The notes under the pieces were generated by a model that saw nothing but the letters and a program-made list of their open reading frames with translations, was not told the origin of the DNA and did no database searches. From a virus (Duplodnaviria; Caudoviricetes), in IMG/VR virus record IMGVR_UViG_3300034407_003088, positions 15,131-79,130 of that record: a stretch of DNA of 64,000 bases. One strand, 5' to 3'. Below are positions 32,602-60,630 of this stretch, piece by piece; position 1 is the first letter of the stretch, and each line of letters starts with the position of its first letter. Position numbers and translations under genes: made by a program.

Positions 32602-32634
32602 ATAAATATAAAACAAGGGCAGTTATATACTTAT
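32602..32634. promoter_or_regulatory. Back-to-back TAYTTAT promoter-like motifs
   Basis: TATTTAT on minus (32602-32608) faces the fibre gene; TACTTAT on plus (32628-32634) faces the RHH gene. Confidence 0.55.
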
Positions 32635-37063: not shown

Positions 37064-38376
37064 GGTTTTGGTAAGTGGTGTGTTGTTGTTATAATAGTAT
37101 TCTCCAAATAATAATTGTCATAACCTTCAATTTGTAATCCATAAAAAGACATAGGTTCCTCATGTAATTCTACATGTGTTATTGGATTATCTAAAAACCT
37201 ATCTCCAACTTTTACATCTGTAGTTTTTACAAATTGGAATTCATTGTCTCTATTAATATATATAAACTCAATTGGTGAAAACATAAAATTATTTATCTCA
37301 ACCCAAGTTTTAAAAGTATACTGATGGATATTACTTACTTTTCCATAATCACATATGTCATTGTGTTGTTTTTCTTTATAATCTACCCATGGTCTGTTTA
37401 TATCAACTATTGTATCATCATTTACTTTATTTAATATAAAAGGTTTTGCAGGTGTTGGATAGTGATGTCCCACTAATTCTTTTATTGTACTTACTTTTAC
37501 CTTATCACCTATTTCTACTTCTCGTATTGGTTTATCAATTACAAAAGTTGAAGATTCAAGTACCTCTACTTTTGTCTCACCACCTACTTGAGCCCATATC
37601 CCACTTCTTACAAATGTACTATTTTCAAATTTCATTTCAAACATATTGTCTAACTTAGGATTTTTATTTACATGAGTTGGATTACCAACTAAATTAATAA
37701 TTTCTGAATAACTTATATTTGAACTTTGTGGTCTAATAGGTATCATTCCTAACTTATCCATTAAAAATAAACACTTCAATACTATTGGATTCCCATACTC
37801 GTCTGTATATGGTTTGATATATTCTTCACAATAATCACTATCATCATATTGACAATTAGGCATATAATCATAATAAGGTGTAGTTTTTAGAAAGTCTCTG
37901 AATAGATTCTTATATCTTGATAAAGTAATTAAACCTTCACCATGTTTTGTTGTGGGTAAATTTTTTATATAATATGTGTCATCGTCTTTTGAAAAATTTT
38001 CTCTTGATTTTGCATAAATTACTTGACATTGTGGTAATTCCTTTGTAAGTTTAGATATAAATTGTGGTTCTGGATTGAATCCTTTATCCTCTTCTCTTAT
38101 AACTAATTTTACTTTTTCATAACCCTTAACCCACAAATGTTTTTTTATTCGTTCAAAGTCTATTCCCGCAGAACCATATAACATTAAATCAGTAAGTGCA
38201 AGGTCTGTATTTATTTCTAACAAATATAACTTTTTATCTTCAGACAAAATCCAATCAAAAGTTAATAACTCACCCTCATTTACATCATTACTTACATAAT
38301 CACTAAGATAAAGTGGTGTACCAATCTGTAGTGATTTGATAATTGCCTCATTTATGATATGGAAACTTCTGACCAC
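37060..38376 (-). CDS. Circularly permuted ATP-grasp-like N-terminus fused to an inactive Hint-like domain
   Basis: FDWIL...LYLLEINTD near the N-terminus; C-terminal KPIREVEIGDKV...DVKVGD...YGLQIEGYDNYY matches Hint blocks but lacks Cys1, TxxH and HN. Confidence 0.55.
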   Translation of the reverse strand: MVRSFHIINEAIIKSLQIGTPLYLSDYVSNDVNEGELLTFDWILSEDKKLYLLEINTDLALTDLMLYGSAGIDFERIKKHLWVKGYEKVKLVIREEDKGFNPEPQFISKLTKELPQCQVIYAKSRENFSKDDDTYYIKNLPTTKHGEGLITLSRYKNLFRDFLKTTPYYDYMPNCQYDDSDYCEEYIKPYTDEYGNPIVLKCLFLMDKLGMIPIRPQSSNISYSEIINLVGNPTHVNKNPKLDNMFEMKFENSTFVRSGIWAQVGGETKVEVLESSTFVIDKPIREVEIGDKVKVSTIKELVGHHYPTPAKPFILNKVNDDTIVDINRPWVDYKEKQHNDICDYGKVSNIHQYTFKTWVEINNFMFSPIEFIYINRDNEFQFVKTTDVKVGDRFLDNPITHVELHEEPMSFYGLQIEGYDNYYLENTIITTTHHLPKP

Positions 38377-38926
38377 TTGGTATCTCTCTTTTTAAAAATT
38401 TACATAATACTTCCCAACCATCACCTTTTGATAAATCCATATGTAAGATGTTTTTGGGATTCACTCTCTTATTTAACCAAAGTAAATTACTTTGATGTTT
38501 AAAATCTGTTTTACCTTTTATCCAATCTTTTTGATATTGTGGATAATTTTCAAATACTTCTTTACCACCAACTCCTAACCAATTCCAAGAATCAACGATA
38601 CCATCATCTAATCTTTTTATCTTATCTCTCAATACCGATTCTACATAGTCATCAAGTGGTCGTGTTAAGGATATGTATCTTGCCCATGGATAATCATCTA
38701 CTAAATGTGGAAATACTATTGGGTCATAAATAGGATAATCAAGAAATGCTTCATACTCATCGTAATCAGTTAATAGTTTCTTTTTGGTTTTCATATATTG
38801 ATATACTGATTCAAGAAGTTCTCCACCACCACCTGTATGATATACTTTGAACCCAAGAATACTTAATGCATCTGATAAACTTTTTGTACCTGTCTTATTG
38901 TAACCTAAAACAAATATTTTAGTCAT
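38348..38926 (-). CDS. Sulfotransferase family (P-loop) protein
   Basis: KIFVLGYNKTGTKSL..AL..LG; YPWARYISLTR; GDGWEVLCKFL. Confidence 0.8.
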   Translation of the reverse strand: MTKIFVLGYNKTGTKSLSDALSILGFKVYHTGGGGELLESVYQYMKTKKKLLTDYDEYEAFLDYPIYDPIVFPHLVDDYPWARYISLTRPLDDYVESVLRDKIKRLDDGIVDSWNWLGVGGKEVFENYPQYQKDWIKGKTDFKHQSNLLWLNKRVNPKNILHMDLSKGDGWEVLCKFLKREIPSGQKFPYHK

Positions 38927-39464: not shown

Positions 39465-39857
39465 TTAGAATTTATTTTTCCATTTTCTGGAATATTCTTG
39501 TTTTGCCCAATTCTCAGCTTTTCTTTCCCATTTATTGGCCCAATATCTATCTTTACCATCTAAGTCTGCCATATTGGAAGCTTGTTGGTATTTCTTTATA
39601 AACTTTTTTCTACCATATTTTGATATTTGTTTTGCATGATGTATCTCATGTAATACGGTAATAATAAACTCAGAAACCTTTGGATAAAATTTATTCAACA
39701 TTATTGTATCTTTTGTCCAATCATACCCACCTTCATCTTTACCATATGTTCCAAATTTAACTTTAGATTTCAATCCATAGTATTTTACTAATTCAGATGC
39801 AACAAATAGTAAATCAACTCTTTCTTGTAATAAAAATATTTTCTTTAATGATGTCAC
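39465..39857 (-). CDS. Zincin-like metallopeptidase (HEXXH)
   Basis: TVLHEIHHAKQ plus downstream WERKAE. Confidence 0.7.
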   Translation of the reverse strand: MTSLKKIFLLQERVDLLFVASELVKYYGLKSKVKFGTYGKDEGGYDWTKDTIMLNKFYPKVSEFIITVLHEIHHAKQISKYGRKKFIKKYQQASNMADLDGKDRYWANKWERKAENWAKQEYSRKWKNKF

Positions 39858-40477
39858 TTCTTCATACCTCTGAATAAAGCTTTTGCAACTTGTTTACCAT
39901 AATCTCTATCACTTGGATAGTGTGCCTTTGCAATAATTCTTGATTCAGCGATATCAGAACCTTTTCCCAAATATTCTTCAGAGTTAGATGGGTCTTTATA
40001 TGATAGATACTCACCAATTAAATAACCTTGGATTGCATGTCCACTTGGATAACTTGGTGTTTTCATACTATCTAATGTAGTACCATTTAAATCAATATCA
40101 TAGAACTCTGCAATTTGATATGGTCGTGGTCTATTGTAATGATATTTTAACTCCATAATAAACTTGACACTTTCTTTTACAATTTTTTTAATATCTTTTC
40201 TACTGATATCTAAACTATTTTTTTCTATTAACTCCATAAATGAATCTACAACATCATCATGTGATTTTGCAAACTCTTCATTGGGTTTAACATTTGATAA
40301 ATATTTTATTTCTTTTAATGTTAGTGATGCATCATTTTCAGGTGGTTGTCGTCTTGGTAATACCAAATTTTCATCCCACAATTCTAATTTACGAGACATT
40401 CTTTTTTCGTCTTTAGGTCTAACACTTTCTGCATACACCATATTACGAAGTTCTAATAATTCTTTTAATTTAATCAT
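39854..40477 (-). CDS. PAP2/vanadium haloperoxidase-type phosphatase
   Basis: KYHYNRPRP, PSYPSGHA, SRIIAKAHYPSD: all three PAP2 motifs. Confidence 0.9.
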   Translation of the reverse strand: MIKLKELLELRNMVYAESVRPKDEKRMSRKLELWDENLVLPRRQPPENDASLTLKEIKYLSNVKPNEEFAKSHDDVVDSFMELIEKNSLDISRKDIKKIVKESVKFIMELKYHYNRPRPYQIAEFYDIDLNGTTLDSMKTPSYPSGHAIQGYLIGEYLSYKDPSNSEEYLGKGSDIAESRIIAKAHYPSDRDYGKQVAKALFRGMKK

Positions 40478-41348: not shown

Positions 41349-42101
41349 TCATCTCCAATCCCATACTTTAAGTGCATTATAGGTGATTCCAAATCCAACT
41401 ACTGGTTCTGTTAAACCTGTAGTTTGGTCATATGTGATTCCAAAAAACGGCCCAACACTTATTTGGTTTCTCGGTGGTTTAATTTTAAAGGGATTACTTC
41501 TTCTACTATTCAATCTTATACCATCAAATTGTCTTTCAGGTACAATTGCATACCATTCACCTTTAATTTCACCTTCTTCTATAAAAGGTTCTCCTTGTTG
41601 AATACTACCATCAAATCCTAAATCTGTTTCTGAATCTACAATACTATCATTTACTATTGCAACACCAGTTCTACCAAAGATTCTTAAGTAGTCATCTTGT
41701 CTACCAAATTCTTTTTCAAATGGAACTACTCCAGCACCACTTGAATGTGATTCTCTATTATCATAAATAGAAGCCTTCTTAGAAAGTTGTTCCTTAATAG
41801 TATCTAATTCTACTTGGAACTCATCCATTTTTTTCTTTAGATTTCTATTCTCAATACCACGAGTTTTATCATGGTCGTGTAAATCTTTTAATAAATTGTT
41901 ATTTTGTTTTACCAAAATCTCAACCGAGTCTTGTAACTCTGTAATCATTACATCTTGTCGTGCAGAATCTTCTCTCAAGAAATCCATCTCTTCTTGAGCA
42001 TAATAATAACGAATTCCCACGATACATAAAATAAAGAGAATATTTAGGAATCCACCTATTACCCACTCTCTTCTTTTTTGTGGCCAATGTTTTAACAACA
42101 T
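41349..42101 (-). CDS. Membrane-anchored coiled-coil protein with amphipathic beta C-terminus
   Basis: N-terminal TM segment, ~75-aa heptad region, terminal SVGPFFGITY...VGFGITY. Confidence 0.55.
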   Translation of the reverse strand: MLLKHWPQKRREWVIGGFLNILFILCIVGIRYYYAQEEMDFLREDSARQDVMITELQDSVEILVKQNNNLLKDLHDHDKTRGIENRNLKKKMDEFQVELDTIKEQLSKKASIYDNRESHSSGAGVVPFEKEFGRQDDYLRIFGRTGVAIVNDSIVDSETDLGFDGSIQQGEPFIEEGEIKGEWYAIVPERQFDGIRLNSRRSNPFKIKPPRNQISVGPFFGITYDQTTGLTEPVVGFGITYNALKVWDWR

Positions 42102-42109
42102 ATGAACTC

Positions 42110-42628
42110 CTATTCTATATTTTCAAGAGCATCCTCAATGGCCTTCTTCAAAGAACCACCTAACTCACTCTTACCAAACTCCACATCCTCTTGAATTTGT
42201 AAACCTGCAGCTGATACTTGTGTAGTTGTTTCACCAATACCACGATAACTTCTCTGTACACCTTCTTTGTTTTGTACTAAGTTTAAAAGTAATCTAACTT
42301 CGGTTTTTTGATTTCTACGATTAAATAAACCTGCAATACTAAATGCTTCATTAGGTTTACCAATATATAGAATCTCTACATTTGCAGTATAATCGGCATT
42401 ATCATCATCTGTTAATCTATATCGTGTATCTTGAAATTGTTCTTCAAGTAATTGTTTCACACCTAAAGTTACTCTTTCATCAACCACACCAATCGTTTCA
42501 TCTACTTTAACAAATTGTGATATTTTTAATGTAGGAAACTCAACATCTTTACCAACCACTGCTGGTTGTGGTAATGATTGTGAATATCCAAATCCTATCA
42601 ATAATAACATCATAATTAGTTTCTTCAT
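42110..42628 (-). CDS. Secreted CsgG/HfaB-like alpha/beta protein
   Basis: Sec signal peptide; aligns by eye with 43628-44266. Confidence 0.5.
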   Translation of the reverse strand: MKKLIMMLLLIGFGYSQSLPQPAVVGKDVEFPTLKISQFVKVDETIGVVDERVTLGVKQLLEEQFQDTRYRLTDDDNADYTANVEILYIGKPNEAFSIAGLFNRRNQKTEVRLLLNLVQNKEGVQRSYRGIGETTTQVSAAGLQIQEDVEFGKSELGGSLKKAIEDALENIE

Positions 42629-42638
42629 TTTGTTCTCC

Positions 42639-43622
42639 TTAAAAGTATGTTCCGAACATTATAGCATAAGTTTTAGTTCTTTCACCATAATCGTTCACAA
42701 CCGTATTGTATCCCATTGAGAATCCTAAGTTCACCTTAAATGCTTGACTCAATTGAAAATCAAAAGAAATCGTAGGCATAAGTATGATAGGACTCTTCAA
42801 TAATAAATATTGTTTTCCTGAATTTAATCCCTTATAATATCTTAATAATGTATAAGATACATAGTTAGTAAGTGTTATTTTACCAAATGATAAATCTAAT
42901 GGCATTCTCATACCATATAATACTGATAAATTACCAAATGCATTTTTACTAACATTTCCATATGCAGTTGTTAAGACAATTACTTCAGAATTTTGTTTAA
43001 CAAGTGACTTTGCATATGAACTTGATAATAACCAATCAGTTCCTTCAAATGTTCTAAAGAAAACACCTGATGCACTTATCACTTGATTTTGTTTCTTTGC
43101 AAGAAAATTTATTCCTTGACCATATGATGCATTAAATCTACTGAAATCATCAGTAAAACTAAAGTTACCATCGTATCTTGATTTACCATCAAAACTTTCT
43201 CTTGTATAAATACTATTAAAAGATGTTACCCAACTACTATCTATGGTTGGTGAAGTTTTAATACCATAATTAACTGCACCCACATCATTACTTACATCTT
43301 GTTTTGTGAATTGTTCTGTAGCGTTACTTGCCAGAACTGACGATAATATTTCTTCTGCAACCCTTACTGCACATGGAAATAAATCTTCAAAATCTCGGTA
43401 GACATTTTCAGTCCATGTCTCCAATGTTCCATTTGTTATTTGTTCAAATGTAAAAAATTTAGATTTATTATAGTATGTAACATAAAATCCACCATTAGTG
43501 GGTTCAAGATTATAATTATCACGAACCACTATCTGATTACATGGGTCAATATAACTATAAAGAAAACCTTGGGCAGAGACACTACCCCATAAAAGTATTA
43601 TTAATAATAATCTCTGCCACAT
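42639..43622 (-). CDS. Outer-membrane beta-barrel-like protein
   Basis: Signal peptide, alternating amphipathic strands, terminal Phe (YAIMFGTYF). Confidence 0.6.
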   Translation of the reverse strand: MWQRLLLIILLWGSVSAQGFLYSYIDPCNQIVVRDNYNLEPTNGGFYVTYYNKSKFFTFEQITNGTLETWTENVYRDFEDLFPCAVRVAEEILSSVLASNATEQFTKQDVSNDVGAVNYGIKTSPTIDSSWVTSFNSIYTRESFDGKSRYDGNFSFTDDFSRFNASYGQGINFLAKKQNQVISASGVFFRTFEGTDWLLSSSYAKSLVKQNSEVIVLTTAYGNVSKNAFGNLSVLYGMRMPLDLSFGKITLTNYVSYTLLRYYKGLNSGKQYLLLKSPIILMPTISFDFQLSQAFKVNLGFSMGYNTVVNDYGERTKTYAIMFGTYF

Positions 43623-43627
43623 TCATT

Positions 43628-44266
43628 CTACCAACCTCTTCTGTCAATTGCTTTAATAACATTGACAACAGCTGTTTCCATAGCCTTGTTAGATGCAGAA
43701 CTTAAAGAACTTTGATTCCATTCCATATTAGGATTCTTTAAAAATCCTTGTCCTATGGTGGATGCTCTTCCTTGTCCACTTCCAACAACATACTGAGTAT
43801 TCTCATTATTGATTACTTTAACTTGGATACCAACAATAGTTTCATTTATTGTTTGAACTTTACCAGTTTTGATATCTTCTTTCAAGTTAACAGCGAAATC
43901 ATAAATAGTTACATACGCAGTGTATTTAGTTTTCTCTATTTTAGCTTCGTTGGCTTTAAGGTCGTTCAACATAGATAATTGTATATCTCTGTCCGCCTCT
44001 ACGAGATTGAATCTACCAATGAAAGAAATAACATTTGCAAGTTCTTGGTTTAACCCAAATGCAACTCGTTTATCTCCAAGTTCTGGATATCTATCCTCAA
44101 GTTCTTTATTGAACTTAACATCCAAAATCTTTAGATTATCAACTTTAGTTATTTCAACTTCATCAAGAGATTTCTGTTTCTCATACTCACCAACATATTG
44201 TTCAGTTGATACTGATGCAGCACATCCCATAAAAACCATTAACGATAATAGTAATAGTTTTTTCAT
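43628..44266 (-). CDS. CsgG/HfaB family lipoprotein
   Basis: Lipobox VFMG-C; GRFNLVE..R, VGIQVKVIN...GSGQG, terminal A..KA...AV helix. Confidence 0.7.
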   Translation of the reverse strand: MKKLLLLSLMVFMGCAASVSTEQYVGEYEKQKSLDEVEITKVDNLKILDVKFNKELEDRYPELGDKRVAFGLNQELANVISFIGRFNLVEADRDIQLSMLNDLKANEAKIEKTKYTAYVTIYDFAVNLKEDIKTGKVQTINETIVGIQVKVINNENTQYVVGSGQGRASTIGQGFLKNPNMEWNQSSLSSASNKAMETAVVNVIKAIDRRGW

Positions 44267-44610
44267 TACTTTGCTCCTATATGATAACCAACTACCATCC
44301 CCATAAGGAAGTTAATTAGTCGTCTTTGTTTTACTTTTCGTTTGAACTTCTTTCGTTGTTCATGTTTATTCTTATGAACATTCATCTTATGTTTCATACG
44401 AATTTTGTGATGTCGGTTGTGTTGAAACCTCATCTTATCCTCTTTCCATCTTTTGTTTTCATCTTGAATACGATAATGGTTGTCTCTTTGTTCTTGTTTT
44501 TGAATAGCCTTATCAACTTCTTCAGGTGTCATATAGGCATCTTGTCCAAATAACTGAGAACTCACACTAAACAAAACCACAGCAATTAGTAGTTTTACAA
44601 ATTTACTCAT
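44266..44610 (-). CDS. Secreted His/Lys/Arg-rich protein with C-terminal hydrophobic Gly segment
   Basis: Signal peptide; HNRHHKIRMKHKMNVHKNKH; FLMGMVVGYHIG. Confidence 0.55.
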   Translation of the reverse strand: MSKFVKLLIAVVLFSVSSQLFGQDAYMTPEEVDKAIQKQEQRDNHYRIQDENKRWKEDKMRFQHNRHHKIRMKHKMNVHKNKHEQRKKFKRKVKQRRLINFLMGMVVGYHIGAK

Positions 44611-44619
44611 AAGTACTCC

Positions 44620-45000
44620 TTACTTGAAATCAGACAATGGGTCTTTTAATAACTTCTCTAATCTTGAGATTTCACTTTTTAATTTATCAATCTCATTCTG
44701 TAGTTTAATTATATCACCATCGTATGATTTCACTTTTGGTGTTTTTAAACCATCTACTTTTTCTCGTAGATATTTTAATTCTTCATCAATATTGTTAAAG
44801 TTATTCGTTACAATTTCAATATCACTTGCTTCTGCAAATCCTTGTACTACTTCTTCCAACGAATCAATACGGCCAGTAAAACTATACCAACCAGCAATTG
44901 CGGTAGAAAGAAAAGTAACAATAGCAATAATATTGTTAATTGATACTCCGAACTTTTTCCCTTTAACATCTTCAATAGCTTGTTCTATATCTTTTGCCAT
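44620..45000 (-). CDS. Single-TM coiled-coil membrane protein
   Basis: IIAIVTFLSTAIAGWY TM segment followed by heptads; AAGGAG SD. Confidence 0.6.
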   Translation of the reverse strand: MAKDIEQAIEDVKGKKFGVSINNIIAIVTFLSTAIAGWYSFTGRIDSLEEVVQGFAEASDIEIVTNNFNNIDEELKYLREKVDGLKTPKVKSYDGDIIKLQNEIDKLKSEISRLEKLLKDPLSDFK

Positions 45001-45011
45001 TTTATTTCTCC

Positions 45012-45068
45012 TTAATTACAACAACCACATTCACAACCGCAGTCACAATTACAATTTGTTTTTTTCAT
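45012..45068 (-). CDS. Cys-rich micropeptide MKKTNCNCDCGCECGCCN (18 aa, not in ORF track)
   Basis: GGAG 7 nt upstream of ATG; fills the gap between two genes exactly; 7 Cys. Confidence 0.65.
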   Translation of the reverse strand: MKKTNCNCDCGCECGCCN

Positions 45069-45069
45069 T

Positions 45070-45939
45070 TTATATCTCCATGTTTATTGTTAACAATAAT
45101 GTGTTTTTTAATGGATGGGTTTCATTACCATTTAATACACCCAATCCAAACTTCCACTTTTCAAATTTAAAATCAAATCCTAATGATGAGTAATTTAAAT
45201 CATGTTCTACATCATTATAGTACCCAGCATTTACCCAAAACATATTTTTTAAGTTATAGGAAATACCTTGTCCATGAGTATGATATCCATCATAAAGATT
45301 CCATTGATTATAAATATCCCACTTATCTTTTATTGGTATGTGTAAACCAACATTAAATGCAGATGGTTGTGTTATTTCAAATCCATTCATCTTGGTCATA
45401 TAACCAACATTAGATATTCCTAAATCTAAATTAACCATTCCATATAATTTATGAAAATGTAAACCTACATCAAGTAACAAACCATCAGTTTTTTCAGTAT
45501 ATAAATCGTGGAATATTGCCTTACCTCTAAGTCCAATAGATACACTATCTACTCGTTTACCTTTGTTAAGTAAATCAGTTCCCCAACCTATTCCTAATAC
45601 TAAAGTACTTGGTGAAAAGTTACCATTTATAATACCACTTTCATCTGCGAAGTTTTGTTCACCATAATTAAAATATAAAAGTGAATAATCAAGTTTACCT
45701 TTTTCAACTTCTATATAATTGTATCCCATATCATCTACAATGTTACCTAACCATTGTACATTAGTGAAACTAACATTAGTAGTAGTATCAAGGTTTAAAT
45801 TGTTAAGTGCAGGATTTCTAAATGCAAGTGATTGGTTACCCAATATTGTTTCACTTGTAGTAGGTGAAAGTGTAAGGACACTATTTACCTGTCCAAACAA
45901 ACTACCAATCATTAATAATCCTATTAATATATTTTTCAT
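45070..45939 (-). CDS. PorV/PorQ family outer-membrane beta-barrel
   Basis: Signal peptide; AFRNPA, QWL..., YFNYGE...DESG...G.F.P, SIGLRGK, LLLDVGL; aromatic strand pattern. Confidence 0.75.
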   Translation of the reverse strand: MKNILIGLLMIGSLFGQVNSVLTLSPTTSETILGNQSLAFRNPALNNLNLDTTTNVSFTNVQWLGNIVDDMGYNYIEVEKGKLDYSLLYFNYGEQNFADESGIINGNFSPSTLVLGIGWGTDLLNKGKRVDSVSIGLRGKAIFHDLYTEKTDGLLLDVGLHFHKLYGMVNLDLGISNVGYMTKMNGFEITQPSAFNVGLHIPIKDKWDIYNQWNLYDGYHTHGQGISYNLKNMFWVNAGYYNDVEHDLNYSSLGFDFKFEKWKFGLGVLNGNETHPLKNTLLLTINMEI

Positions 45940-46043
45940 TTTCTGTTCTCCAATTTTTCAGATATCCAAACAATACCCTTTAGAGTCAAATACCCTAATG
46001 GTAGTATTAAAAATAATAATCCAAAAAATTTTATAGTTTCCAT
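45936..46043 (-). CDS. Small single-TM protein (35 aa, not in ORF track)
   Basis: METIKFFGLLFLILPLGYLTLKGIVWISEKLENRK; TAATG overlap upstream and ATGA overlap downstream. Confidence 0.65.
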   Translation of the reverse strand: METIKFFGLLFLILPLGYLTLKGIVWISEKLENRK

Positions 46044-48922
46044 TATTTTACCACCGTAAATTTATTAGCTTTTATTTTCTTGTCTGTTTCAAGAACAAAT
46101 ATATAAACACCTGGTTCTAAAGTTTGATGATTCTCATATACACTTACTTCAGGTAACCAAACACTTGGTTCATTTGTAAAGTCAAATGTATGTATTCCTG
46201 AATCAACTACTTCATCTAATAATGTTCCAATGTATTGTCCATTAGAATTTAATATATAAAGTTTTACTTGTTCCGTTTGGTCTAAGAAGAATTGGAACTT
46301 AGTGTTTTCTGTAAAAGGATTTGGGTAGTTATAAGTTATCTCATCATCACCTGGTTCTCCACCACCGAATGCCCAATACTTATTCCATACCATCACTTTA
46401 CCACTTTCTCTTTTCATATTTAAATCATCACCATTTGGATTACCTGCTGCATATTTACCAATGAATCTAATAGGAGCTTCACTCCATTCTTCATCAGGAA
46501 ACTCTGCTCTGAACATTAATTTTAATGCACTCATCGGTTCATTAATCCAATAATTATTTGGTGAGTTACCTGGTGAATAATCCATACCACCAAATCTTAC
46601 TCTTTGCCATCCCTCTTCAACTTCACCTACATTAACATAGGTCATCCATGGGCCTGGTAGATTACCAGTCTTCATATCAATAAATGTTAATTCATTTGTA
46701 TTAAACTCAACTTCAAATTCAAACCCTGCAATATCAATACCCTCTGTTGGTGTGATATTTAATGGTACTTCAATTACCTCACCACTTTGAACTCTTACGG
46801 TTGAATCAGGTGGGAATGATAATGTTACATCATGGTCTGTCATGAATGATTTCATTGCCATTCTATTATTTCCACCACCAACTATTCTTGCCCACTCATC
46901 AGGTGCGTCTCCATTACCCCAACGATAATATGTTGTTCCGTCTACGGTTGGTGTAATTGCAGTTCCATTGTTATCAACTTTTAAACCTGTTAAATTCACA
47001 TCACCTGTAAAGTAGTATGCAATATCTGAGTCATTATCAGTTCCAACAATATCTACTTGTTTAGAACCATCTTGTGTTTCTGTATCATTGAAGTAATAAT
47101 CAGGATTAGCATCACTACCAAATGTAGAACTACCTGCCCCAACTTTAATACTTAATACATCTAATCTGGTCTCAACATCATTCATCAATGGATTCAATCT
47201 AATAATACCACCACCATCAGTAGTTAGTTCTGTAGTTTCTTGTGCTAAATCACCATCAACAAATATACTGAACTCTCCTCTTTGGTTTCTTGTGTATCCA
47301 TCATAATCTTCTTTGTAAGTATAAGAGTCATCACTTCCATTTAAATTATCTATACTTGACCATTGTTGATAAGTTTCTCCATTGTAGTGTGTGTATGATG
47401 TTTCAAACACTCCACTTGTGTATGCCCATAAGAAGTAGGCATCATTTAATTGGAACTTATCATCACCATCAACATCACCAACTAAATATCCACTTGGTGA
47501 TTCTATTTCTATATCTGTTTCGTTATCAAATTTATTTGATTGAAAATTAAATCCTGCAATAGCATCATTAATATTTGTAATTGCATCTCTATCTAATAGA
47601 TAAGTGGTATGGTCTCCAACCACATCATCTGCTTCTGGTGGCCAGAATGATACTTTATATCTGTTGTTTCGTGGTAAAGAAATATTGAAATATCCTTTAT
47701 CATCTGTGTATGTCCAATACGAATAAGTTACATCTCTAAATCCTTGATTCTGAATCTTTTGGTCTGATGTTGTTCCGGCATTTTGTTCATAGTATCTCAT
47801 ATGTTGATACCCTAATGCAAAATTTCCAAACTCATCGTAAGTTCCCATAACATCATCATTTAAAGATTCATCTGTTAAACTTGTTGGATAATTAATATCT
47901 CGTATGTTTCTCCAATTAGAAAGATTATCTGTATTAGTTTCATCTACTTCAAAGATAACTTTCATCATTGCATATTTGTTTTGTGAAAAATCTTCACCAC
48001 TATCTTTTGTTCCATCTTTATCAGTATCAATCCATTCACCAATGTATCTTAAGTATCCCTCAAGTTGTACAAGTTTTGGATGTAGTGTGATATCTCCACG
48101 AGCACCACCATTGTAAGTTCTTTCTGCTGAATAGTAATCACCCCAATTACCATCAATGTAAACTTTATAATCTAAAAGATAATCATCTGAAACATATGTG
48201 TAGTATCCCTCACTACCATCGTATTGAGTTGCAACTCTAAATGCTCTTGGTGCAAAATCATCAACTACATCATTAATTAAAAATTCAAGTTTTAAAATTT
48301 GTTTCTGAACTCCATCACCACCACCAAACATTTTATCTGGTGTTCCATCGTTATCTGAATCAACTCCGTGAGATACTGCAGTTATTCTTAACCAATCATA
48401 TCTTGTATCTGTTATGGACTCTTCTACTAATGATTCAGAACTACCAACTGCTAATGAATCTTGATATCCTACATTTGGATAATGAACTACTTCAAAAGAA
48501 TAATCTGCATTAGATGATTCATCACCTTCAGTCCAACCACTTATGTGTGAACCTTTAATAACTCTTGAATTTCCTTGTGTCCAAGCATTAACTGATGTTT
48601 CACCACTCTCCACCCAAGTGATTAAATCATTATCAAATGCTATATCTATTCTGAATGTTGTGATATCTGCACCATTATCATCAAGTGTAACTTCCATCTC
48701 CAATACTTTATCTCTCCAAATATCAAAGTTATTATTATCTTCAGCTGGTTTAGTTACATCTTGTGCTAAGAAATCGTCTAAATCTTGTGTAACTGAGTCT
48801 TTCCACCACATTGCTGGCGTAGACCAATTACCTAATTGTTTTACTCTAATAATTGGGTCTTGTGCAAACAATATCCCAAACATAGTCATATACATAACCG
48901 TTGTTTTAACGAAACGAATCAT
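46043..48922 (-). CDS. Secreted cohesin/dockerin protein with T9SS type A-like C-terminal sorting domain
   Basis: Signal peptide ending LFA-Q; cohesin-like IAGFEFEVEFN and ITTFRIDIAFD; dockerin-like GDVDGDDKFQLNDA; YPNPF...LEPGVYIFVL...KFTVVK terminus; start refined to ATG 48922 after GGAG. Confidence 0.8.
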   Translation of the reverse strand: MIRFVKTTVMYMTMFGILFAQDPIIRVKQLGNWSTPAMWWKDSVTQDLDDFLAQDVTKPAEDNNNFDIWRDKVLEMEVTLDDNGADITTFRIDIAFDNDLITWVESGETSVNAWTQGNSRVIKGSHISGWTEGDESSNADYSFEVVHYPNVGYQDSLAVGSSESLVEESITDTRYDWLRITAVSHGVDSDNDGTPDKMFGGGDGVQKQILKLEFLINDVVDDFAPRAFRVATQYDGSEGYYTYVSDDYLLDYKVYIDGNWGDYYSAERTYNGGARGDITLHPKLVQLEGYLRYIGEWIDTDKDGTKDSGEDFSQNKYAMMKVIFEVDETNTDNLSNWRNIRDINYPTSLTDESLNDDVMGTYDEFGNFALGYQHMRYYEQNAGTTSDQKIQNQGFRDVTYSYWTYTDDKGYFNISLPRNNRYKVSFWPPEADDVVGDHTTYLLDRDAITNINDAIAGFNFQSNKFDNETDIEIESPSGYLVGDVDGDDKFQLNDAYFLWAYTSGVFETSYTHYNGETYQQWSSIDNLNGSDDSYTYKEDYDGYTRNQRGEFSIFVDGDLAQETTELTTDGGGIIRLNPLMNDVETRLDVLSIKVGAGSSTFGSDANPDYYFNDTETQDGSKQVDIVGTDNDSDIAYYFTGDVNLTGLKVDNNGTAITPTVDGTTYYRWGNGDAPDEWARIVGGGNNRMAMKSFMTDHDVTLSFPPDSTVRVQSGEVIEVPLNITPTEGIDIAGFEFEVEFNTNELTFIDMKTGNLPGPWMTYVNVGEVEEGWQRVRFGGMDYSPGNSPNNYWINEPMSALKLMFRAEFPDEEWSEAPIRFIGKYAAGNPNGDDLNMKRESGKVMVWNKYWAFGGGEPGDDEITYNYPNPFTENTKFQFFLDQTEQVKLYILNSNGQYIGTLLDEVVDSGIHTFDFTNEPSVWLPEVSVYENHQTLEPGVYIFVLETDKKIKANKFTVVK

Positions 48923-48959
48923 CGTATTCTCCATTGTATCTGTGTCTATAAACATTCCC

Positions 48960-49010
48960 TGAACTATGGGGAAGATTGTGTGTAGCCTTAATTTAGTTCA
49001 ATAATAAATA
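48960..49010 (-). promoter_or_regulatory. TATTTAT motif followed by TGAACTA/TAGTTCA leader hairpin
   Basis: Motif at 49004-49010; 7-bp stem arms at 48994-49000 and 48960-48966. Confidence 0.45.
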
Positions 49011-49029
49011 TAAAGAAAGGAAAAATTAT

Positions 49030-51794: not shown

Positions 51795-54700
51795 TTAATT
51801 TACTTTTAATTTTGAATCACCTGGTTCTTTTGTTATAAGTTGTGTTGGTGTTGTAGTTGTTGTTTCAACTGGTTCTCCACCATCAAATGTATTTGATGAT
51901 ACGGTTAATTGTCCACTTCCAAGACTTACACTACCAATAAATGGTGATTTACTTGAAGTAGGATGACTTGTTTGTCCATCATCTCTTGTTACTGAACCAC
52001 CAATAAATGACCTAAATAATCTTGTATCATAATAAACACTCTGATGTTCACTTGGTACAAATGAAGAACTATAATGTAGTCCTCTTGATGCACTCAAACT
52101 TGATGAATAAAAGAATACTTTTTCTTGATTATGTTCTGCCAATCTTGAACCTGTTATTACTGGTTGTAATACTTCACCAAATGTTATACCTTCTCCACCA
52201 AATGTTACACTTGCAGTTGCATAGTTGTAAGAGTGTGGTGTTTTTGCATCTATGACACCTAACTTAACTAATGTAGGTTCTCCCAATCCACCAAGTGAAC
52301 CACTATTATCATGATAGACTGCATTCAATCCACTTTCATAATATTTTTGTTCACCACCTATATCAAAGTATGCATCATCTTTTGAACCACTAATAAATCT
52401 TGTTACTGGTACACCATCTTCAAACTCATTTGCATTTTCAAAGTAACGATTATCAAACTCAGGTCTATCACCTATTACTTGTTTACTTCTTTCTAAAATA
52501 TTTGGTTCTATCAATACACCTGTAGTTGCCTTACTTCTTGCAGGAACCCAATTCTTTAATTGTGTAAATACACTTGGGTCATAGAATGTTAAAATTCTTA
52601 AATAATCAAAAAAGTTATTTGGACTTGAATATTTTTGAAAATATTCAGTTTGTAATCTTTTAAGACCTCTATAGTTTAATTTGTATTGGTCTCGTGGGTC
52701 ACCGATATAATCATCAAAATTAAAGTCTGCAATACTATATAATATATCCTCATTAACAACATCAACTGGTGAAAAATAAATACCAACTTTCTCACTATCT
52801 ATTGGTGCAAAATCTTGTGATGATTTTTCTTTTCTTTCATCAGGTGATAAATTACCAATAATAGTACTATCTTCTACCCTAACTTTAGTTGCATTTCTTC
52901 TTGTAGGGCCAATGTTTGGTACTTTCAATTGTTCCTTATCAACTAAACTTCTAAATGTATTACTTGTAAATCCATTTACTGAACCTGTTGTATCCATTTG
53001 TGATGTTACGAAATAGTTTTGTCTATTACTAACACTACTAACAAATGAAGTTGATGATAAATTAACATTATTATCAAGTGGATATCTTACTAACAAGTCG
53101 TGGTATGAAGAACTATATGAATTACCATTATAAGCTCTTGGTGCCCTAACATGATTATCAAATACACTTTGTGATAATGGTTCTGACCATAGACGATACT
53201 CCATTAATGAACCACTATATCTTGAACCGAAGTTTGTATTTTGTCCACCAAGATAAACAAATTTTGAACCAACACTACCTGTAAATGCAGCATTGATTGC
53301 ACTACTACTTGCGTGTCCGATACCAGTTGTTAAACTTGAACTTGTTTGGAACTTAATTTTTTCTCTTGTTGAGTCATATTGTTTTGTAGTTAATTCATAT
53401 TTTACATTTCTTGTGATTAAATCATCAGTCATTTGTGCACCACTTGCACTTACTCGTGTTAACATCACACTCCACATCTCATCATTATAGAATGGTAAGA
53501 GTGAAGAAGTTATACCATAAACTCCTGTTGATGCACTAACACTAAATTTTAAATACCCATAATCATCTGTAGTACCATTGTCTTTTAAATGTATTGCCCA
53601 ATCATTTTCTTTTTGTGCAATCACCATACTACCAGAACTTCCTACACTATTTGGTGTTCTAAATCTTAATTCTAAAGCTTGTGGATATTGACTATTTAAA
53701 TCGGTTGTCCATAAACTTTTTACATATTGTGAACTATGAAAATCTAATGCATATGTAAATTTTCTTTTTACTTCATAACTTACTCGTTCTTGATTATCAG
53801 GCCCACCATATTCTCTAACTCTTAATATAGAACTTGGAATACCATAACAATTTAAAATCCCTTTTAAACATCTGACACTACCTTTTGACTTGATAAAGAA
53901 TGGAATGTTATTTAATAATCGTTTCCATATTTCTTCCGTTACTTCTTCTTGTGGTGTTTCATACTTTGTGGAACCATCAGGATTTTTACCCTCAAGATAT
54001 TCAGGTAATATCAATAAGTCATTACCATTTGTAAGTTCCAATCCAAGTGATTTCGCAAACTCTGATGCAATGTCTTTACTTATACCCTCTGAAACATTAG
54101 GTGAAAGATTATTAACATCTGTAAAGTGTTTTGTATATGTCCATATCTCATCAAATTGTTGACCAGTCATATCCATAAATTCTATAAATGTATTGTTCAT
54201 CGTATCATCTTTAACATGCATAGGTAAATTATTACCAAGTCTATCATTATTAGTAGAATCGTAAGTTGACGCAGACAATATCATATTGTCAAACCAATTA
54301 CTTACTTCAGAACCACTTGAATGATAAAGTACATATGGTTTAGAACTATTTTGTTTAGGCCAACTATTTTCATGATATTGTCCAGCCGATGAACTTACAT
54401 AAGATGAACTTTCAAAATACATATAATGTTCAAATGGGTCAAAGGAATTAATTACTCTTGCTCTTTTATCTTCATTTGATTGTATGTCACTTAGTGAACC
54501 TGTTAGACTTACCAATGATGAACTTGTTTCACTATATGTTTCTATATACTCAATTTTTTTCTTAAAATTTCTTAATCTTCTCTCTGCACTTGAGTAATGT
54601 ATGAAATTACCAAATCCAATATCATCAGATTCTAAATTTAAATCTACTGATGTTCTATTAAACTCTGTATTAACTTGTACATCTAATAAACTACCACTTA

Positions 54701-56957
54701 CTAATTTTCTTTCAATATCTTTATTAAGTTGGTTGTCACTTCCTAATAATGTGTTATGTGTTTCAAATCTTGTTGACCTAAAATTAATTGGATTATCAAC
54801 TGAATTTAAATTAGGTAATTGTAAAAATAAACCATCTGGTTCTTCATCTATAAATGGTATTAATCTAACCACCTCAACATGAGATGGTAATCTTTTTTCT
54901 ACAAAATATACTTTGTCTAATTCTTCTTTGTCACCTGCCAATGGTAGTTTTAATTTAAATACTCTTTTTGAATCTTGAGTTTCAAAGAAGTTTTTATTTT
55001 CATTTGTGATTAAATAATAATCATCATCACAAACCATATAGGTTTTAAATCTTTCTATATTATTTTTCTCATATAAAACATTCCATCCATACCAATCAGT
55101 ATCTCTACCACTTGGGCCATCATGACCAACATTATCTGCAGCATCTTGATATGATATACTTACTCTTACTTTATTATAATCAAGAACCTCTGTAATTGTT
55201 GCAACATAATCAAAGTGAAATGTTTCATTTTCAAATCTTTCAACCCAACTTTCAACAACACGAGTTTCGTACTCTATTGTTACTTCGTCTTCAGGTGAAA
55301 TAGGTAATGGTGTTTGTCTAATGAATTCTTCTAATGCAGGTAACTCTGCATGTAATACCACCTCTTCTTTAATGTCTGGTACAATAACTTCGTTTTGATA
55401 TATGTTGTTATTGTTTGCACCATATAAACCCCATCCATCTCCACCATCTATTAATCCACCTTGTGGTAAACCATTACCTGGTGTTAATGGGTCTGTACCT
55501 TCTTCACCTAAATCTGCATTACCTGTTACATCAAAATCAATGTATGCAGGTCTGGCAGAACCTTGTCTACTTGCACGATATGGGTCAACATAACCACTTG
55601 CTGCTCTTTGTTCTGCAAGTTGTTGTGCTCTTTTTGACTGACCCATTCTAAATCTATTTCTGTCTTCAAGAAATCTTTCTTGCCAATGTTTAGTCTCAGT
55701 AGTCTTCCATTTACCAAGAGTCGCTGCAACTATATTGTTTGCAAAAATTGTGTGGTCTTTATCTAATACTAAGTTCCACACTTTAAAAGGTGGTTTCTGA
55801 TAATATACTTTACCAATCTCTCTTGACATGAACCAACCATCTTTTGTTCTGATAGGATGGTGGTCGGTAACGATAAGGTTTTTATATTTAACCATCAAGT
55901 CACCAAAACCTCTTTCACTCTTTATGACTTTCTTAACTCTTGCAACACCTTTATCTGTTCTGACTTTCATACCAATCTTCATCATCTTGATTGGAACTTG
56001 TCTACCACTACTTAATGTTACTTTTGTATTAGGATGAAAACAAACTCCATCGTAATCAAACATACCACCATAATCCTCATCTTCTTCATCAGGTAGGTCT
56101 GGTGGTGGTGGGTCTGGTTCAGGTTCAGGTGGTAACTCTTCATAAGGTGGTGGAGGTGGAGGCGGGTCTGGAATACTATCATCTAAACTATGAGTAATCT
56201 CAACAGGAACCTCTATCGTTTCTACCACACTTTCAAGATATTGTCTTGTTATTGTTTTTTCAAATATTCTTGGTAATCTAATTTCACCACCAACCATATT
56301 TTGTGTAAACCCTCTATCATTATCTTGTAGGTTTGCAACTAATATTCCTGGTTCATTTTCATCAAACTTAATAGAACCATTTGCTCCACTACCTGCAGTA
56401 AGAAATGGTTGAAACTTTACAATAGAATTCATCTCTCTAAAGTTTTTATGATATGTTTGGTTTTTAAAATCTTGTGTTTTAACTACGATTTCTGTTCTAT
56501 CACCACTAATCTTATCAAGTGAATATTTTAAATCTCGTATAAATAATTCTTTTGGTGGATTATCTGCAAGTGATTGAGCAGATGCATTTGGTGGTGGGGC
56601 AGTATAATATCTTGTTTCACCATTTACATTTTTTGTGACAACTTTACCTGCATATAATTCACCATCACCATTTACCATTACTAAATGGTCTCTACCTGCT
56701 AACTTTCTTAGAAATCTATATTGTACAATATATTCACCATCCGATAATCCATTATCTCTTAGATGTTGACCAACATTTAAATCTAAAAACCCTTCAGTAT
56801 TTACATCAGGATTAAACTTATCTGTGAGCACAAGTTCATCATTTTGGAAAACTTCTAAAACTATATAGTCTTTACTATCTCTTCCAAAACTACTATATAC
56901 CCTTTCAGGTTTATAATATTGTTCTCTCTCTTGATTATTAAATCCGTATTCTGCCAT
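51795..56957 (-). CDS. Large baseplate wedge-like protein (gp7/P2 I-like segment, LamG) with internal Vint-type Hint domain
   Basis: IWKRLLNNIP..IKSKGS..C..GIL..YG wedge motif; LamG-like WSVML...LMEYRLW; CFHPNTKV...VTDHHPI...VWNLVL...IVAATLG. Confidence 0.75.
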   Translation of the reverse strand: MAEYGFNNQEREQYYKPERVYSSFGRDSKDYIVLEVFQNDELVLTDKFNPDVNTEGFLDLNVGQHLRDNGLSDGEYIVQYRFLRKLAGRDHLVMVNGDGELYAGKVVTKNVNGETRYYTAPPPNASAQSLADNPPKELFIRDLKYSLDKISGDRTEIVVKTQDFKNQTYHKNFREMNSIVKFQPFLTAGSGANGSIKFDENEPGILVANLQDNDRGFTQNMVGGEIRLPRIFEKTITRQYLESVVETIEVPVEITHSLDDSIPDPPPPPPPYEELPPEPEPDPPPPDLPDEEDEDYGGMFDYDGVCFHPNTKVTLSSGRQVPIKMMKIGMKVRTDKGVARVKKVIKSERGFGDLMVKYKNLIVTDHHPIRTKDGWFMSREIGKVYYQKPPFKVWNLVLDKDHTIFANNIVAATLGKWKTTETKHWQERFLEDRNRFRMGQSKRAQQLAEQRAASGYVDPYRASRQGSARPAYIDFDVTGNADLGEEGTDPLTPGNGLPQGGLIDGGDGWGLYGANNNNIYQNEVIVPDIKEEVVLHAELPALEEFIRQTPLPISPEDEVTIEYETRVVESWVERFENETFHFDYVATITEVLDYNKVRVSISYQDAADNVGHDGPSGRDTDWYGWNVLYEKNNIERFKTYMVCDDDYYLITNENKNFFETQDSKRVFKLKLPLAGDKEELDKVYFVEKRLPSHVEVVRLIPFIDEEPDGLFLQLPNLNSVDNPINFRSTRFETHNTLLGSDNQLNKDIERKLVSGSLLDVQVNTEFNRTSVDLNLESDDIGFGNFIHYSSAERRLRNFKKKIEYIETYSETSSSLVSLTGSLSDIQSNEDKRARVINSFDPFEHYMYFESSSYVSSSAGQYHENSWPKQNSSKPYVLYHSSGSEVSNWFDNMILSASTYDSTNNDRLGNNLPMHVKDDTMNNTFIEFMDMTGQQFDEIWTYTKHFTDVNNLSPNVSEGISKDIASEFAKSLGLELTNGNDLLILPEYLEGKNPDGSTKYETPQEEVTEEIWKRLLNNIPFFIKSKGSVRCLKGILNCYGIPSSILRVREYGGPDNQERVSYEVKRKFTYALDFHSSQYVKSLWTTDLNSQYPQALELRFRTPNSVGSSGSMVIAQKENDWAIHLKDNGTTDDYGYLKFSVSASTGVYGITSSLLPFYNDEMWSVMLTRVSASGAQMTDDLITRNVKYELTTKQYDSTREKIKFQTSSSLTTGIGHASSSAINAAFTGSVGSKFVYLGGQNTNFGSRYSGSLMEYRLWSEPLSQSVFDNHVRAPRAYNGNSYSSSYHDLLVRYPLDNNVNLSSTSFVSSVSNRQNYFVTSQMDTTGSVNGFTSNTFRSLVDKEQLKVPNIGPTRRNATKVRVEDSTIIGNLSPDERKEKSSQDFAPIDSEKVGIYFSPVDVVNEDILYSIADFNFDDYIGDPRDQYKLNYRGLKRLQTEYFQKYSSPNNFFDYLRILTFYDPSVFTQLKNWVPARSKATTGVLIEPNILERSKQVIGDRPEFDNRYFENANEFEDGVPVTRFISGSKDDAYFDIGGEQKYYESGLNAVYHDNSGSLGGLGEPTLVKLGVIDAKTPHSYNYATASVTFGGEGITFGEVLQPVITGSRLAEHNQEKVFFYSSSLSASRGLHYSSSFVPSEHQSVYYDTRLFRSFIGGSVTRDDGQTSHPTSSKSPFIGSVSLGSGQLTVSSNTFDGGEPVETTTTTPTQLITKEPGDSKLKVN

Positions 56958-57480: not shown

Positions 57481-58656
57481 TTATCTCTCAATGTTTCTTA
57501 CAACCTTAAATGACCATGCTGGGTCACTATAGTAATTTATCAATTCATCTGTGGTTCCACTACCACTAACTACTTTAAGATGTATGTCATAATGTCTTTC
57601 TGATTGGAAACTATCCATTCTTAAATTAAAGTAATTACCAGTACCATCACAACTAACAATTGAACCTGTACCAAATGGTACTATTGTTTCTTCAGTTACA
57701 GAATCTTTAATTGAATAGAAAGTTGAACCACTTGGTAATGTTCGTACGGTAAGACCTTCAGGTGTTGTACCAAACACTCTATCATTGTATCTTGGTCTAC
57801 CAACTAATCTAAATCTTGATATTGATTTTTCTAAATATTCCTCTCGTATACCTTTAAAATAAATTACGGTATCGTCTAATGCACTACCTGTAAGTTGTGC
57901 TAAACTTCCTGTTGTCCACTTTGAATCATCCCAAACAACTTCTAATGATGGTGGATAAATTGTATGTGTTTCTCTTGAAAAGAATTGTAGTGTACCAAGT
58001 CGTGAAGTTCCACCTTCATCTGAGGTAGTATCACCACTATATGAATAAGTTGTTCCATATGAACCTGTAGATTCTCTCTTAATTATAAATCCATTATTTG
58101 GATAAATAGAACTTGAAAAAATATGATTTCTAACCAAATCAGTTACATCAAATCTAACATCTCGTTTATCATAAGTTAAACCAAAAGACCCACTTATGTT
58201 ATATTGTGAATAAGAATCTTGTGAACCACTAAACCAAGAACCACCATCTGTCAAGAGTGAACCTGTCACCCATGGTAATTTTTGGTCTTGGTCTCTGTAT
58301 TGATATGATGCACCATTTGTAGTTATAGGACTATCAAACTTTTTACCAGTTCCTGATTTCCAACTTCCACTAACCATATAGATAACAAGGTTTTGTTCTG
58401 CCTCTATATCTTTTGAACCTGCATCATATAAATTTAAATAAAATTTTGCATCTGTAGGTATCTTACCATCTTGAATTGACTTAGATACATACGAGTAGTC
58501 TGCACTTAATAATATACGAGATACATTTATTGTACTACCATCTGAACTTACTTCTTTTACAACTTCTAATATTTCATCATGACCAGCATTTAACGATGAT
58601 GTTGTACCACCTGAATAAATTGTTGTGTCTCTGTTTATGTATTCAAAATAATGCAT
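57481..58656 (-). CDS. DNRLRE-like beta-sandwich structural protein
   Basis: FDVTDLV, NNGFIIK, FFSRET...PPSLEVVW pattern. Confidence 0.5.
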   Translation of the reverse strand: MHYFEYINRDTTIYSGGTTSSLNAGHDEILEVVKEVSSDGSTINVSRILLSADYSYVSKSIQDGKIPTDAKFYLNLYDAGSKDIEAEQNLVIYMVSGSWKSGTGKKFDSPITTNGASYQYRDQDQKLPWVTGSLLTDGGSWFSGSQDSYSQYNISGSFGLTYDKRDVRFDVTDLVRNHIFSSSIYPNNGFIIKRESTGSYGTTYSYSGDTTSDEGGTSRLGTLQFFSRETHTIYPPSLEVVWDDSKWTTGSLAQLTGSALDDTVIYFKGIREEYLEKSISRFRLVGRPRYNDRVFGTTPEGLTVRTLPSGSTFYSIKDSVTEETIVPFGTGSIVSCDGTGNYFNLRMDSFQSERHYDIHLKVVSGSGTTDELINYYSDPAWSFKVVRNIER

Positions 58657-60629: not shown

Positions 60630-60630
60630 T

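Follow-up and report, generated by a model that had tools for sequence, protein, structure and literature searches.

In the anchoring pairs described in type IX secretion systems (T9SS), a protein with a C-terminal sorting domain (CTD) is encoded together with, or held by, a barrel of the PorV/PorQ kind (PMC12365241, PMC12618676, PMC5562754); at the outer membrane, the barrel PorV holds PorU and the barrel PorQ holds PorZ (PMC12365241), cargo of type B is held by cognate carriers of the PorP/SprF type (PMC12618676), and cargo and barrel of the SprB/SprF-type pairs are genetically linked. Phage genes for CsgG are already known as well; pelagimyophages (HTVC008M group) and the Methylophilales phage Melnitz carry CsgG and CsgF without curlin, with roles that are speculative (PMC9004378). 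Here we consider a 64,000-nt stretch of DNA from a large, uncultured marine phage (the window; bases 15131-79130 of the 79,130-base IMG/VR virus record IMGVR_UViG_3300034407_003088, CheckV completeness 41%), in which a single operon encodes a predicted T9SS cargo protein, a barrel of the PorV/PorQ family and two CsgG-like proteins. The literature searched yielded neither a phage PorV-family gene nor a phage T9SS cargo, nor any description or test of this operon. We know of no example of a phage programming the T9SS.

The operon consists of ten open reading frames (ORFs) packed on the minus strand at 41349-48955 (all gene coordinates given below refer to this strand, on which all long ORFs of the window lie); neighbours overlap or are 5-10 nt apart, and gaps of ~70 nt mark the operon edges on both sides. 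A preliminary description of this DNA had spoken of one coupled operon, and all the ORFs it described were indeed found in place, including its 35-aa transmembrane (TM) peptide, Cys peptide and membrane proteins. All operon products except an 18-aa Cys-rich peptide carry a signal peptide or a membrane anchor; no such feature was seen on the three upstream products or on the downstream products checked. As in the known T9SS pairs, a CTD protein is encoded with a barrel of the PorV/PorQ kind and, as in the SprB/SprF-type pairs, the two genes are linked; in contrast to those pairs, the one considered here is phage-encoded and combines a type A CTD with its own adjacent barrel.

The first gene (46043-48955) encodes the cargo, a protein of 970 aa with a Sec signal peptide, an N-terminal part of ~670 aa, a cohesin region at residues ~715-860 and a type A CTD at residues 877-968. 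The T9SS profile TIGR04183 matched this extreme C-terminus with 27.1 bits (cut-off 23), the score being 35.6 bits in an orthologue (L024); PF18962 gave 17.8 bits, below its gathering threshold (GA) of 27, which another orthologue (L026) passes at 27.4. The CTD motifs YPNPF, GxY and KFTVxK were invariant across 10 orthologues. The leader, read by eye rather than by a predictor, is hydrophobic and ends in FAQ, as it does in the orthologues; the probable true start is M8 or M12, where the orthologue alignments begin. With TIGR04183 above its cut-off in the cargo, in its orthologues and in protein gp015 of Flavobacterium phage immuto, there is good reason to keep the term 'CTD-bearing' used earlier for this putative surface protein. 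Since the cargo has both a Sec signal and a type A CTD, it is, as judged from these signals, built for export across the outer membrane through the host type IX translocon; no translocon genes were shown in the phage record.

The cohesin family PF00963 was matched by the cargo with 24.5 bits (GA 24.1) and by three orthologues with 25.4, 25.8 and 28.3 bits, while others stayed below GA; the match is partial, covering positions 7-54 (up to 77) of the 139 in the profile. One dockerin-like calcium-loop segment is present at cargo residues 489-520 (47396-47491) and is invariant in 10 orthologues; it is a single segment, not duplicated, and the matches listed at E up to 0.01-1 for six orthologues of the cargo include no dockerin family (PF00404). 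The combination brings to mind the cohesin-dockerin pairs of the cellulosome type, where a cohesin also resides on a surface-anchored protein; in contrast to the cellulosome, the cohesin match here is partial, the dockerin-like loop has no match to a dockerin profile hidden Markov model (HMM), and both elements are in one polypeptide.

Adjacent to the cargo gene, at 45070-45939, lies the gene of a 289-aa protein with a signal peptide, which we take, from profile comparisons, to be a divergent barrel of the PorV/PorQ family that is neither PorV nor PorQ. The family profile NF033709 gave 76.9 bits (E 2e-21), short of its cut-off of 90 bits; the positional orthologues in a sister lineage matched it over the whole profile with 125.4, 95.1 and 90.2 bits. 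The equivalog profiles, on the other hand, were matched poorly, by the 289-aa protein itself (PorV, NF033710, 39.8 bits with cut-off 250; PorQ, NF033711, 54 bits with cut-off 220) as well as by its orthologues (at most 80.9 and 61.5 bits). The phage barrel is also ~80-100 aa shorter than PorV. The 'PorV-like barrel' of the preliminary description may thus stand as a member of the PorV/PorQ family, but not as an orthologue of PorV.

Two very small ORFs border the barrel gene. The 35-aa peptide (45936-46043; hydrophobic core at residues 3-28, single TM segment) is a variable accessory ORF, present in L003, L008 and L011 and absent from L004 and from the sister lineage. On the other side, an ORF of 18 aa with CxC repeats and without a signal peptide (45011-45067; read from the letters) follows the barrel gene; a CxC/CC-rich ORF of 11-27 aa occupies this place in 25 of 45 related loci (L030-L072). 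The sequences of these micro-ORFs differ between loci and none has a signal peptide; as a guess, they could take part in metal or redox binding.

The operon is genuine phage DNA. A first scan detected the whole block, beside the same flanking genes, in six other viral contigs; a second one, seeded with a distant relative of the 212-aa lipoprotein described below, recovered the sister sublineage, in which the module proteins are merely 26-50% identical to those of the window as compared with 72-88% for SbcC and RusA. A profile scan located PorV-like genes in 51 viral contigs with the module at the same genomic position (identity span 26-91%); the cargo gene is directly upstream of the PorV-like gene in 50/50 viral loci, with the other module genes behind them in every contig long enough to show it. 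Sequence nearly identical to that of the window occurs in 18 seawater or marine runs from at least eight studies, and relatives were seen in Tara data too; none of the runs listed was an RNA run. Both operon junctions are bridged, with 0-1 differences, by contigs of four independent studies. The continuity across 41 kb and 49 kb and the synteny in other phages, both singled out for checking in the preliminary description, are therefore in hand; its statement that the base composition is like that of the flanking phage genes holds also (operon GC content 0.30-0.33, similar to the flanks).

As to the host, one copy of the module (L011, NZWA01000008.1), the only one met in bacterial genomes, is on a phage fragment of 9 kb that was binned with a Flavobacteriales metagenome-assembled genome (MAG), with the compared module proteins 80-99% identical; the fragment may be there as a binning artefact or may give a hint of the host, and the MAG that holds it has a PorV of its own (495 bits). 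The baseplate wedge protein of the window is 40% identical to that of Flavobacterium phage immuto; the closest cultured one is from Microcystis phage Mel-JY01 (PP395634.1; 47.5% identity), where the PorV-like, 212-aa, 327-aa and cohesin-CTD queries had no match. Used as tblastn queries against 50,697 phage records, neither the PorV-like and 327-aa proteins nor the cohesin-CTD part found a match; the sole match of the 212-aa protein in these records was in immuto. A related-locus search seeded with P0250 gave no locus. With due reservation, one may suppose that the module is expressed in an infected Flavobacteriales cell, as a phage-encoded module of the host envelope. Among 150 other Flavobacteriales genomes, the sole bacterial match to the 212-aa profile was an operon that starts with a longer CsgG-type protein; it occurs in two genomes (L018 in G101, L019 in G116) and encodes four lipoproteins of 308-311, 111-113, 113-114 and 229-230 aa.

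The 212-aa protein itself (43628-44266) is a putative outer-membrane lipoprotein with lipobox FMGC, whose Cys is conserved in both sublineages; its modelled structure and profile matches indicate that it has the CsgG fold. The Pfam family CsgG (PF03783) was not matched directly, at E up to 1, by this protein or by the 172-aa protein encoded nearby. An exhaustive phmmer search with the 212-aa protein, however, collected 103 relatives; of 30 aligned, 11 matched the Pfam family CsgG and 5 matched LpoB, the best PF03783 match among the relatives having E 1.9e-17 and one of them (P0266) scoring 27.2 bits against a GA of 20.8. The AlphaFold2 (AF2) model has pLDDT 81. Foldseek gave PelC as the best match (E 6e-8), CsgG being matched also; upon structural re-alignment CsgG was at the top (Z 12.3-13.5, root-mean-square deviation 2.8-3.6 over 158-182 residues), with LptE, PelC and TraT below it (Z 7.6-10). 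An hhalign comparison of the 212-aa family with Escherichia coli CsgG (probability 93.3%, E 2.7e-7, 237 columns) placed the lipobox in register, and likewise the YP in the constriction loop, of which the N and F are not kept. E. coli CsgG (type VIII secretion) is among the closest described systems, with a full-length profile alignment, lipobox, YP loop and the best structural match; the phage protein differs in being ~65 residues shorter and in that the equivalents of the TM1 and TM2 hairpins are, in this alignment of 13% identity, shorter and polar or charged.

The second protein of this kind (172 aa; 42110-42628) has a signal peptide without Cys and is, by the family-to-family hhalign comparison (95.5%, E 1.3e-8, 122 columns), a remote, non-lipidated paralogue of the 212-aa lipoprotein. 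The two CsgG-like proteins announced in the preliminary description have therefore been recovered, the first through intermediates, hhalign and fold, and the second as its remote paralogue; of the three HMM matches anticipated there, those to the CTD and to the PorV family were obtained, and the one to CsgG failed directly while being supported through profile and fold evidence. No Pfam or NCBIfam match to CsgA, CsgB, CsgE or CsgF was found among the operon products, and searches of PDB with sequences and profiles gave nothing useful for the 212, 172, PorV-like, 327 and 250 families. The pelagimyophages and Melnitz are likewise large marine myophages with a CsgG-fold gene and no curlin subunits; however, there is no similarity to their CsgG at the BLAST level, the module has no CsgF, the host phylum is Bacteroidota, and the CsgG-like lipoprotein is accompanied here by its paralogue, by the orphan barrel, by the T9SS cargo and by the PorV-family barrel.

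The orphan barrel-like protein (327 aa; 42639-43622) has a signal peptide and no family match. It comprises an N-terminal domain of ~110 aa with a conserved Cys pair, followed by a predicted barrel that ends in FGTYF; this C-terminal FGT(Y/N)F is invariant in the family. The AF2 model (pLDDT 48, ~13 strands) suggests, with low confidence, an outer-membrane beta-barrel, in agreement with the second barrel mentioned in the preliminary description; 50 of the 50 structural matches listed were outer-membrane barrels (Z 10-14), with no family prominent among them. A kinship between this family and the PorV-like one was considered and dropped, as the likeness reported by hhalign was confined to the signal peptide.

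Two further products are predicted to be bitopic inner-membrane proteins. The one of 126 aa (44620-45000; topology from hydropathy) would have its N-terminus inside, one TM segment at ~17-42 and a periplasmic coiled coil; it had only weak matches, of coiled-coil type, and is 45-99% identical across both sublineages. The one of 250 aa (41349-42101) combines one TM segment and a periplasmic coiled coil with a beta-rich C-terminal domain; its family has an invariant C-terminal tail of 45 aa ending in WDWR (alignment of 11 orthologues) and matched in PDB only proteins of coiled-coil type. The remaining ORF (114 aa; 44266-44610) encodes a signal-peptide protein with a very basic middle and a hydrophobic C-terminal segment. 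It is a variable accessory ORF, absent from L004; a similar ORF of 99 aa lies in L024 (11695-11994) between the barrel gene and the 172-like gene. Small proteins of this make (signal peptide, basic stretch, hydrophobic end) shift their place in the module between lineages and are absent from some. In one contig of the sister lineage an ORF of 95 aa resembling 4Fe-4S ferredoxin is inserted between the 126-like and 212-like genes (L026:9709-9996).

Comparison of distance matrices over 21 unique loci showed which parts of the module diverge together. One pattern (r 0.75-0.95) is common to the cohesin region, the CTD and the PorV-like, 126, 212, 327, 172 and 250 proteins; another (r 0.26-0.60) is seen in the N-terminal ~670 residues of the cargo and in the gene upstream of the operon. 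Such a difference in patterns indicates a mosaic boundary within the cargo gene, near cargo residue ~700 (~46860). As far as sequence comparison can tell, the evolutionary unit is the cohesin-CTD anchor with everything downstream, and the N-terminal part is swapped separately, which suggests that this part is an exchangeable head on a conserved anchor. We also considered co-divergence as evidence of binding between the PorV-like barrel and the CTD and rejected it; once the other parts were controlled for, the partial correlation was ~0, and linkage explains the block.

Phage immuto (NC_055915) has a related set in the same order. The products of its genes gp015-gp019 are, in turn, a cohesin-CTD protein, a small protein with a TM segment, a CsgG-like homologue of the 212-aa lipoprotein, a homologue of the orphan barrel and one of the 172-aa paralogue; gp015 is annotated as a cohesin domain protein and gp016-gp019 as hypothetical. 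The gp015 protein is 243 aa long, matches TIGR04183 with 44.8 bits and aligns to cargo residues 720-963. In immuto, separate genes of lectin type lie upstream of the cohesin-CTD gene, whereas here the head is fused into the 970-aa cargo; this separate cohesin-CTD gene fits the notion of the cohesin-CTD anchor as a unit with a separately exchanged N-terminal part. The cargo N-terminal part showed no significant likeness to immuto gp013 or gp014; the sole stretch to align was the dockerin-like one, to gp013 over 30 columns (E 0.07). In contrast to the 212-aa lipoprotein, the CsgG-like gp017 has no lipobox Cys; immuto also has no PorV-like gene and no 250-like gene. New in the window are the PorV/PorQ-family barrel, the head and the cohesin anchor joined in a single 970-aa cargo, the 250-aa protein and the Cys-rich micro-ORF.

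What could such a set of proteins do? The purpose we rank first, if tentatively, is that the phage-encoded module remodels the surface of the infected cell, with the cargo displayed and the barrel serving as its receptor or anchor. The sequences show the core products to be targeted to the envelope, and the cargo to be marked for export by Sec and then by the host T9SS. By analogy with PorV-PorU, PorQ-PorZ and type B cargo with its cognate carriers, the phage barrel of the PorV/PorQ family could be a private outer-membrane receptor or anchor dedicated to the cargo; the cohesin-bearing cargo would thereby stay on the cell surface and not be set free. To go by fold and topology, an assembly in the outer membrane may be made up of the CsgG-fold lipoprotein, the paralogue without a lipid and the orphan barrel, and the two coiled-coil proteins of the inner membrane would reach it from below; all five together might span the envelope and support, or be a partner of, the cohesin anchor on display. 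This anchor would bear an exchangeable head, namely the N-terminal two thirds of the cargo, and the net effect may be a remodelled surface, with the head and the cohesin mediating adhesion or aggregation.

Several observations weigh against this proposal. The barrel is below the family cut-off and matches neither equivalog, so that its role could differ; the equivalents of the TM hairpins in the CsgG-like protein are short and polar, in an alignment of 13% identity; the model of the 327-aa protein is of low confidence; and the dockerin-like segment is without HMM support. Physical linkage alone can yield a common divergence pattern. Finally, as immuto has neither the PorV-like gene nor the 250-like gene, a cohesin anchor can work without both of them.

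A bolder version of surface display, which we consider doubtful, is that the seven co-inherited proteins make up one phage-built, envelope-spanning machine plugged into the host T9SS. In such a machine the host translocon would hand the phage cargo over to the private receptor of the PorV family, and the display would be held or energised by a CsgG-like ring with the barrel, both tied to the inner membrane through the two coiled-coil proteins. If this were true, the machine would be a virus-encoded accessory secretion or attachment complex of a sort undescribed for any phage or T9SS.

Next in our ranking of purposes, and unlikely in our estimate, comes superinfection exclusion or receptor masking, in which a lipoprotein ring, barrels and a bulky surface protein would block the receptors of the phage itself or of competitors, on infected cells and on lysis debris, in the manner of T5 Llp, Cor or plasmid TraT. 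Exclusion is a common task of the outer-membrane lipoproteins of phages. TraT decamers have the fold of the 212-aa lipoprotein, but the Z of 7.6-7.8 (7.7 being within the range of common arrangements) is well under the 13.5 of CsgG; to this one may add a faint match of the 172-aa protein to TraT in Pfam (E 0.048). Among close relatives the presumed surface-facing parts, the PorV-like protein and the cargo, vary most while the 212-aa and 126-aa proteins are 90-99% conserved, as would be expected under an arms race. Still, seven co-conserved genes are many for masking, and the known exclusion lipoproteins act alone.

Export of a polymer, which we hold to be rather improbable, would have the lipoprotein of the CsgG/PelC/LptE fold and a barrel, as in PelC-PelB or LptE-LptD, move a phage-made glycan or lipid-linked product through the outer membrane, with the inner-membrane coiled-coil proteins in a part like that of a co-polymerase. 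In both PelC-PelB and LptE-LptD a lipoprotein gene of the same fold stands beside a barrel gene, as it does here; however, the likeness is at the fold level only (Z 8-10 for PelC and LptE), the match of the barrel is a generic one, and the pathway partners are missing. PelC was the best Foldseek match (E 6e-8), but CsgG clearly beats PelC and LptE in structural re-alignment and in sequence profile; similarly, the tied best matches of the 327-aa barrel include the PelB porin (Z 13.1), though that barrel match is generic. Genes of PAP2 and sulfotransferase families just downstream of the operon would suit a glycan or lipid-linked product; on the other hand, no Wza, Wzc or Pel family matches (Pfam/NCBIfam) were found among the operon products, and immuto retains the set beside a cohesin-CTD gene, which ties the set to a protein cargo.

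A role in lysis or egress appears very improbable. The proteins could form a spanin-like complex, or a CsgG-like ring could time lysis through a leaky outer membrane, such a lysis-timing role having been proposed for CsgG/CsgF of Melnitz (PMC9004378). The topology, bitopic inner-membrane coiled coils with an outer-membrane lipoprotein, does resemble that of i-spanins and o-spanins, and the 126-, 212- and 250-aa proteins have weak matches to Rz-like spanins in PHROG (E ~0.006); these matches, however, are at the chance level, driven by coiled coil and signal peptide, and no stretch passes alone. Small o-spanins do not resemble the 212-aa protein with its globular CsgG fold, the neighbour genes tested included neither an endolysin nor a holin, and a T9SS cargo with a PorV-like barrel has no place in such a complex. 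That the operon arose as a chimera in assembly, or is host DNA that was captured and serves the phage in no way, as its bacterial protein families (T9SS and CsgG) and the copy in the Flavobacteriales MAG could make one think, has next to no chance of being true and is ruled out by the synteny over 51 contigs, the bridging contigs and the flank-like composition; the MAG contig is itself a 9-kb phage fragment, and the 212-aa profile matched in only 2 of 150 other Flavobacteriales genomes, both times in the different, four-lipoprotein operon.

Cargo handling in the T9SS has been thought to rest on shuttles and anchors of the host; a virus with its own PorV-family barrel and tagged cargo would, if the reading of surface display is true, be the first phage known to us to program this system, and the phage pair would constitute a natural, minimal cargo-barrel system for studies of recognition. 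Surface remodelling of infected marine Flavobacteria could affect particle attachment, aggregation and phage-phage competition; since the lineage is widespread in seawater metagenomes, it could matter in the ocean. The operon also offers a second, independent context for the unexplained CsgG genes of phages. The core set is present in a cultured pair, immuto and Flavobacterium sp. LMO8, which is usable for tests.

Upstream of the operon, the 74-nt gap contains the motif TTTATATTTAT (49004-49014, minus strand), a candidate element of a phage promoter. An exact copy recurs at 32602-32612, 29 nt upstream of a gene of 2915 aa (23826-32573; no Pfam or PHROG match), and near-exact copies precede other minus-strand gene starts; the count over the window is not above chance, so that we regard the motif as a hint only. 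The preliminary description had spoken of a TATTTAT motif common to the operon and the flanking phage genes. A scan for sigma-70 promoters gave fewer matches than the shuffle expectation, and the five terminator-like sites are all within genes.

The operon is located between structural and replication genes. On one flank are the baseplate-side structural genes, including the baseplate wedge gene (58656-61086) and a gene of a 1720-aa protein (51795-56957) whose residues 305-417 match a Hint domain of the Vint type (PF14623, E 1.7e-16); on the other are genes of PAP2, RusA, sulfotransferase, primase and SbcC. The position 'between baseplate and head-associated genes' given earlier is therefore right as to the baseplate side and has to be corrected on the other one, as the operon is not beside head genes. 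The PAP2-family phosphatase and the sulfotransferase, encoded just downstream of the operon at 39854-40477 and 38348-38926, may also have a role on the envelope or on glycans.

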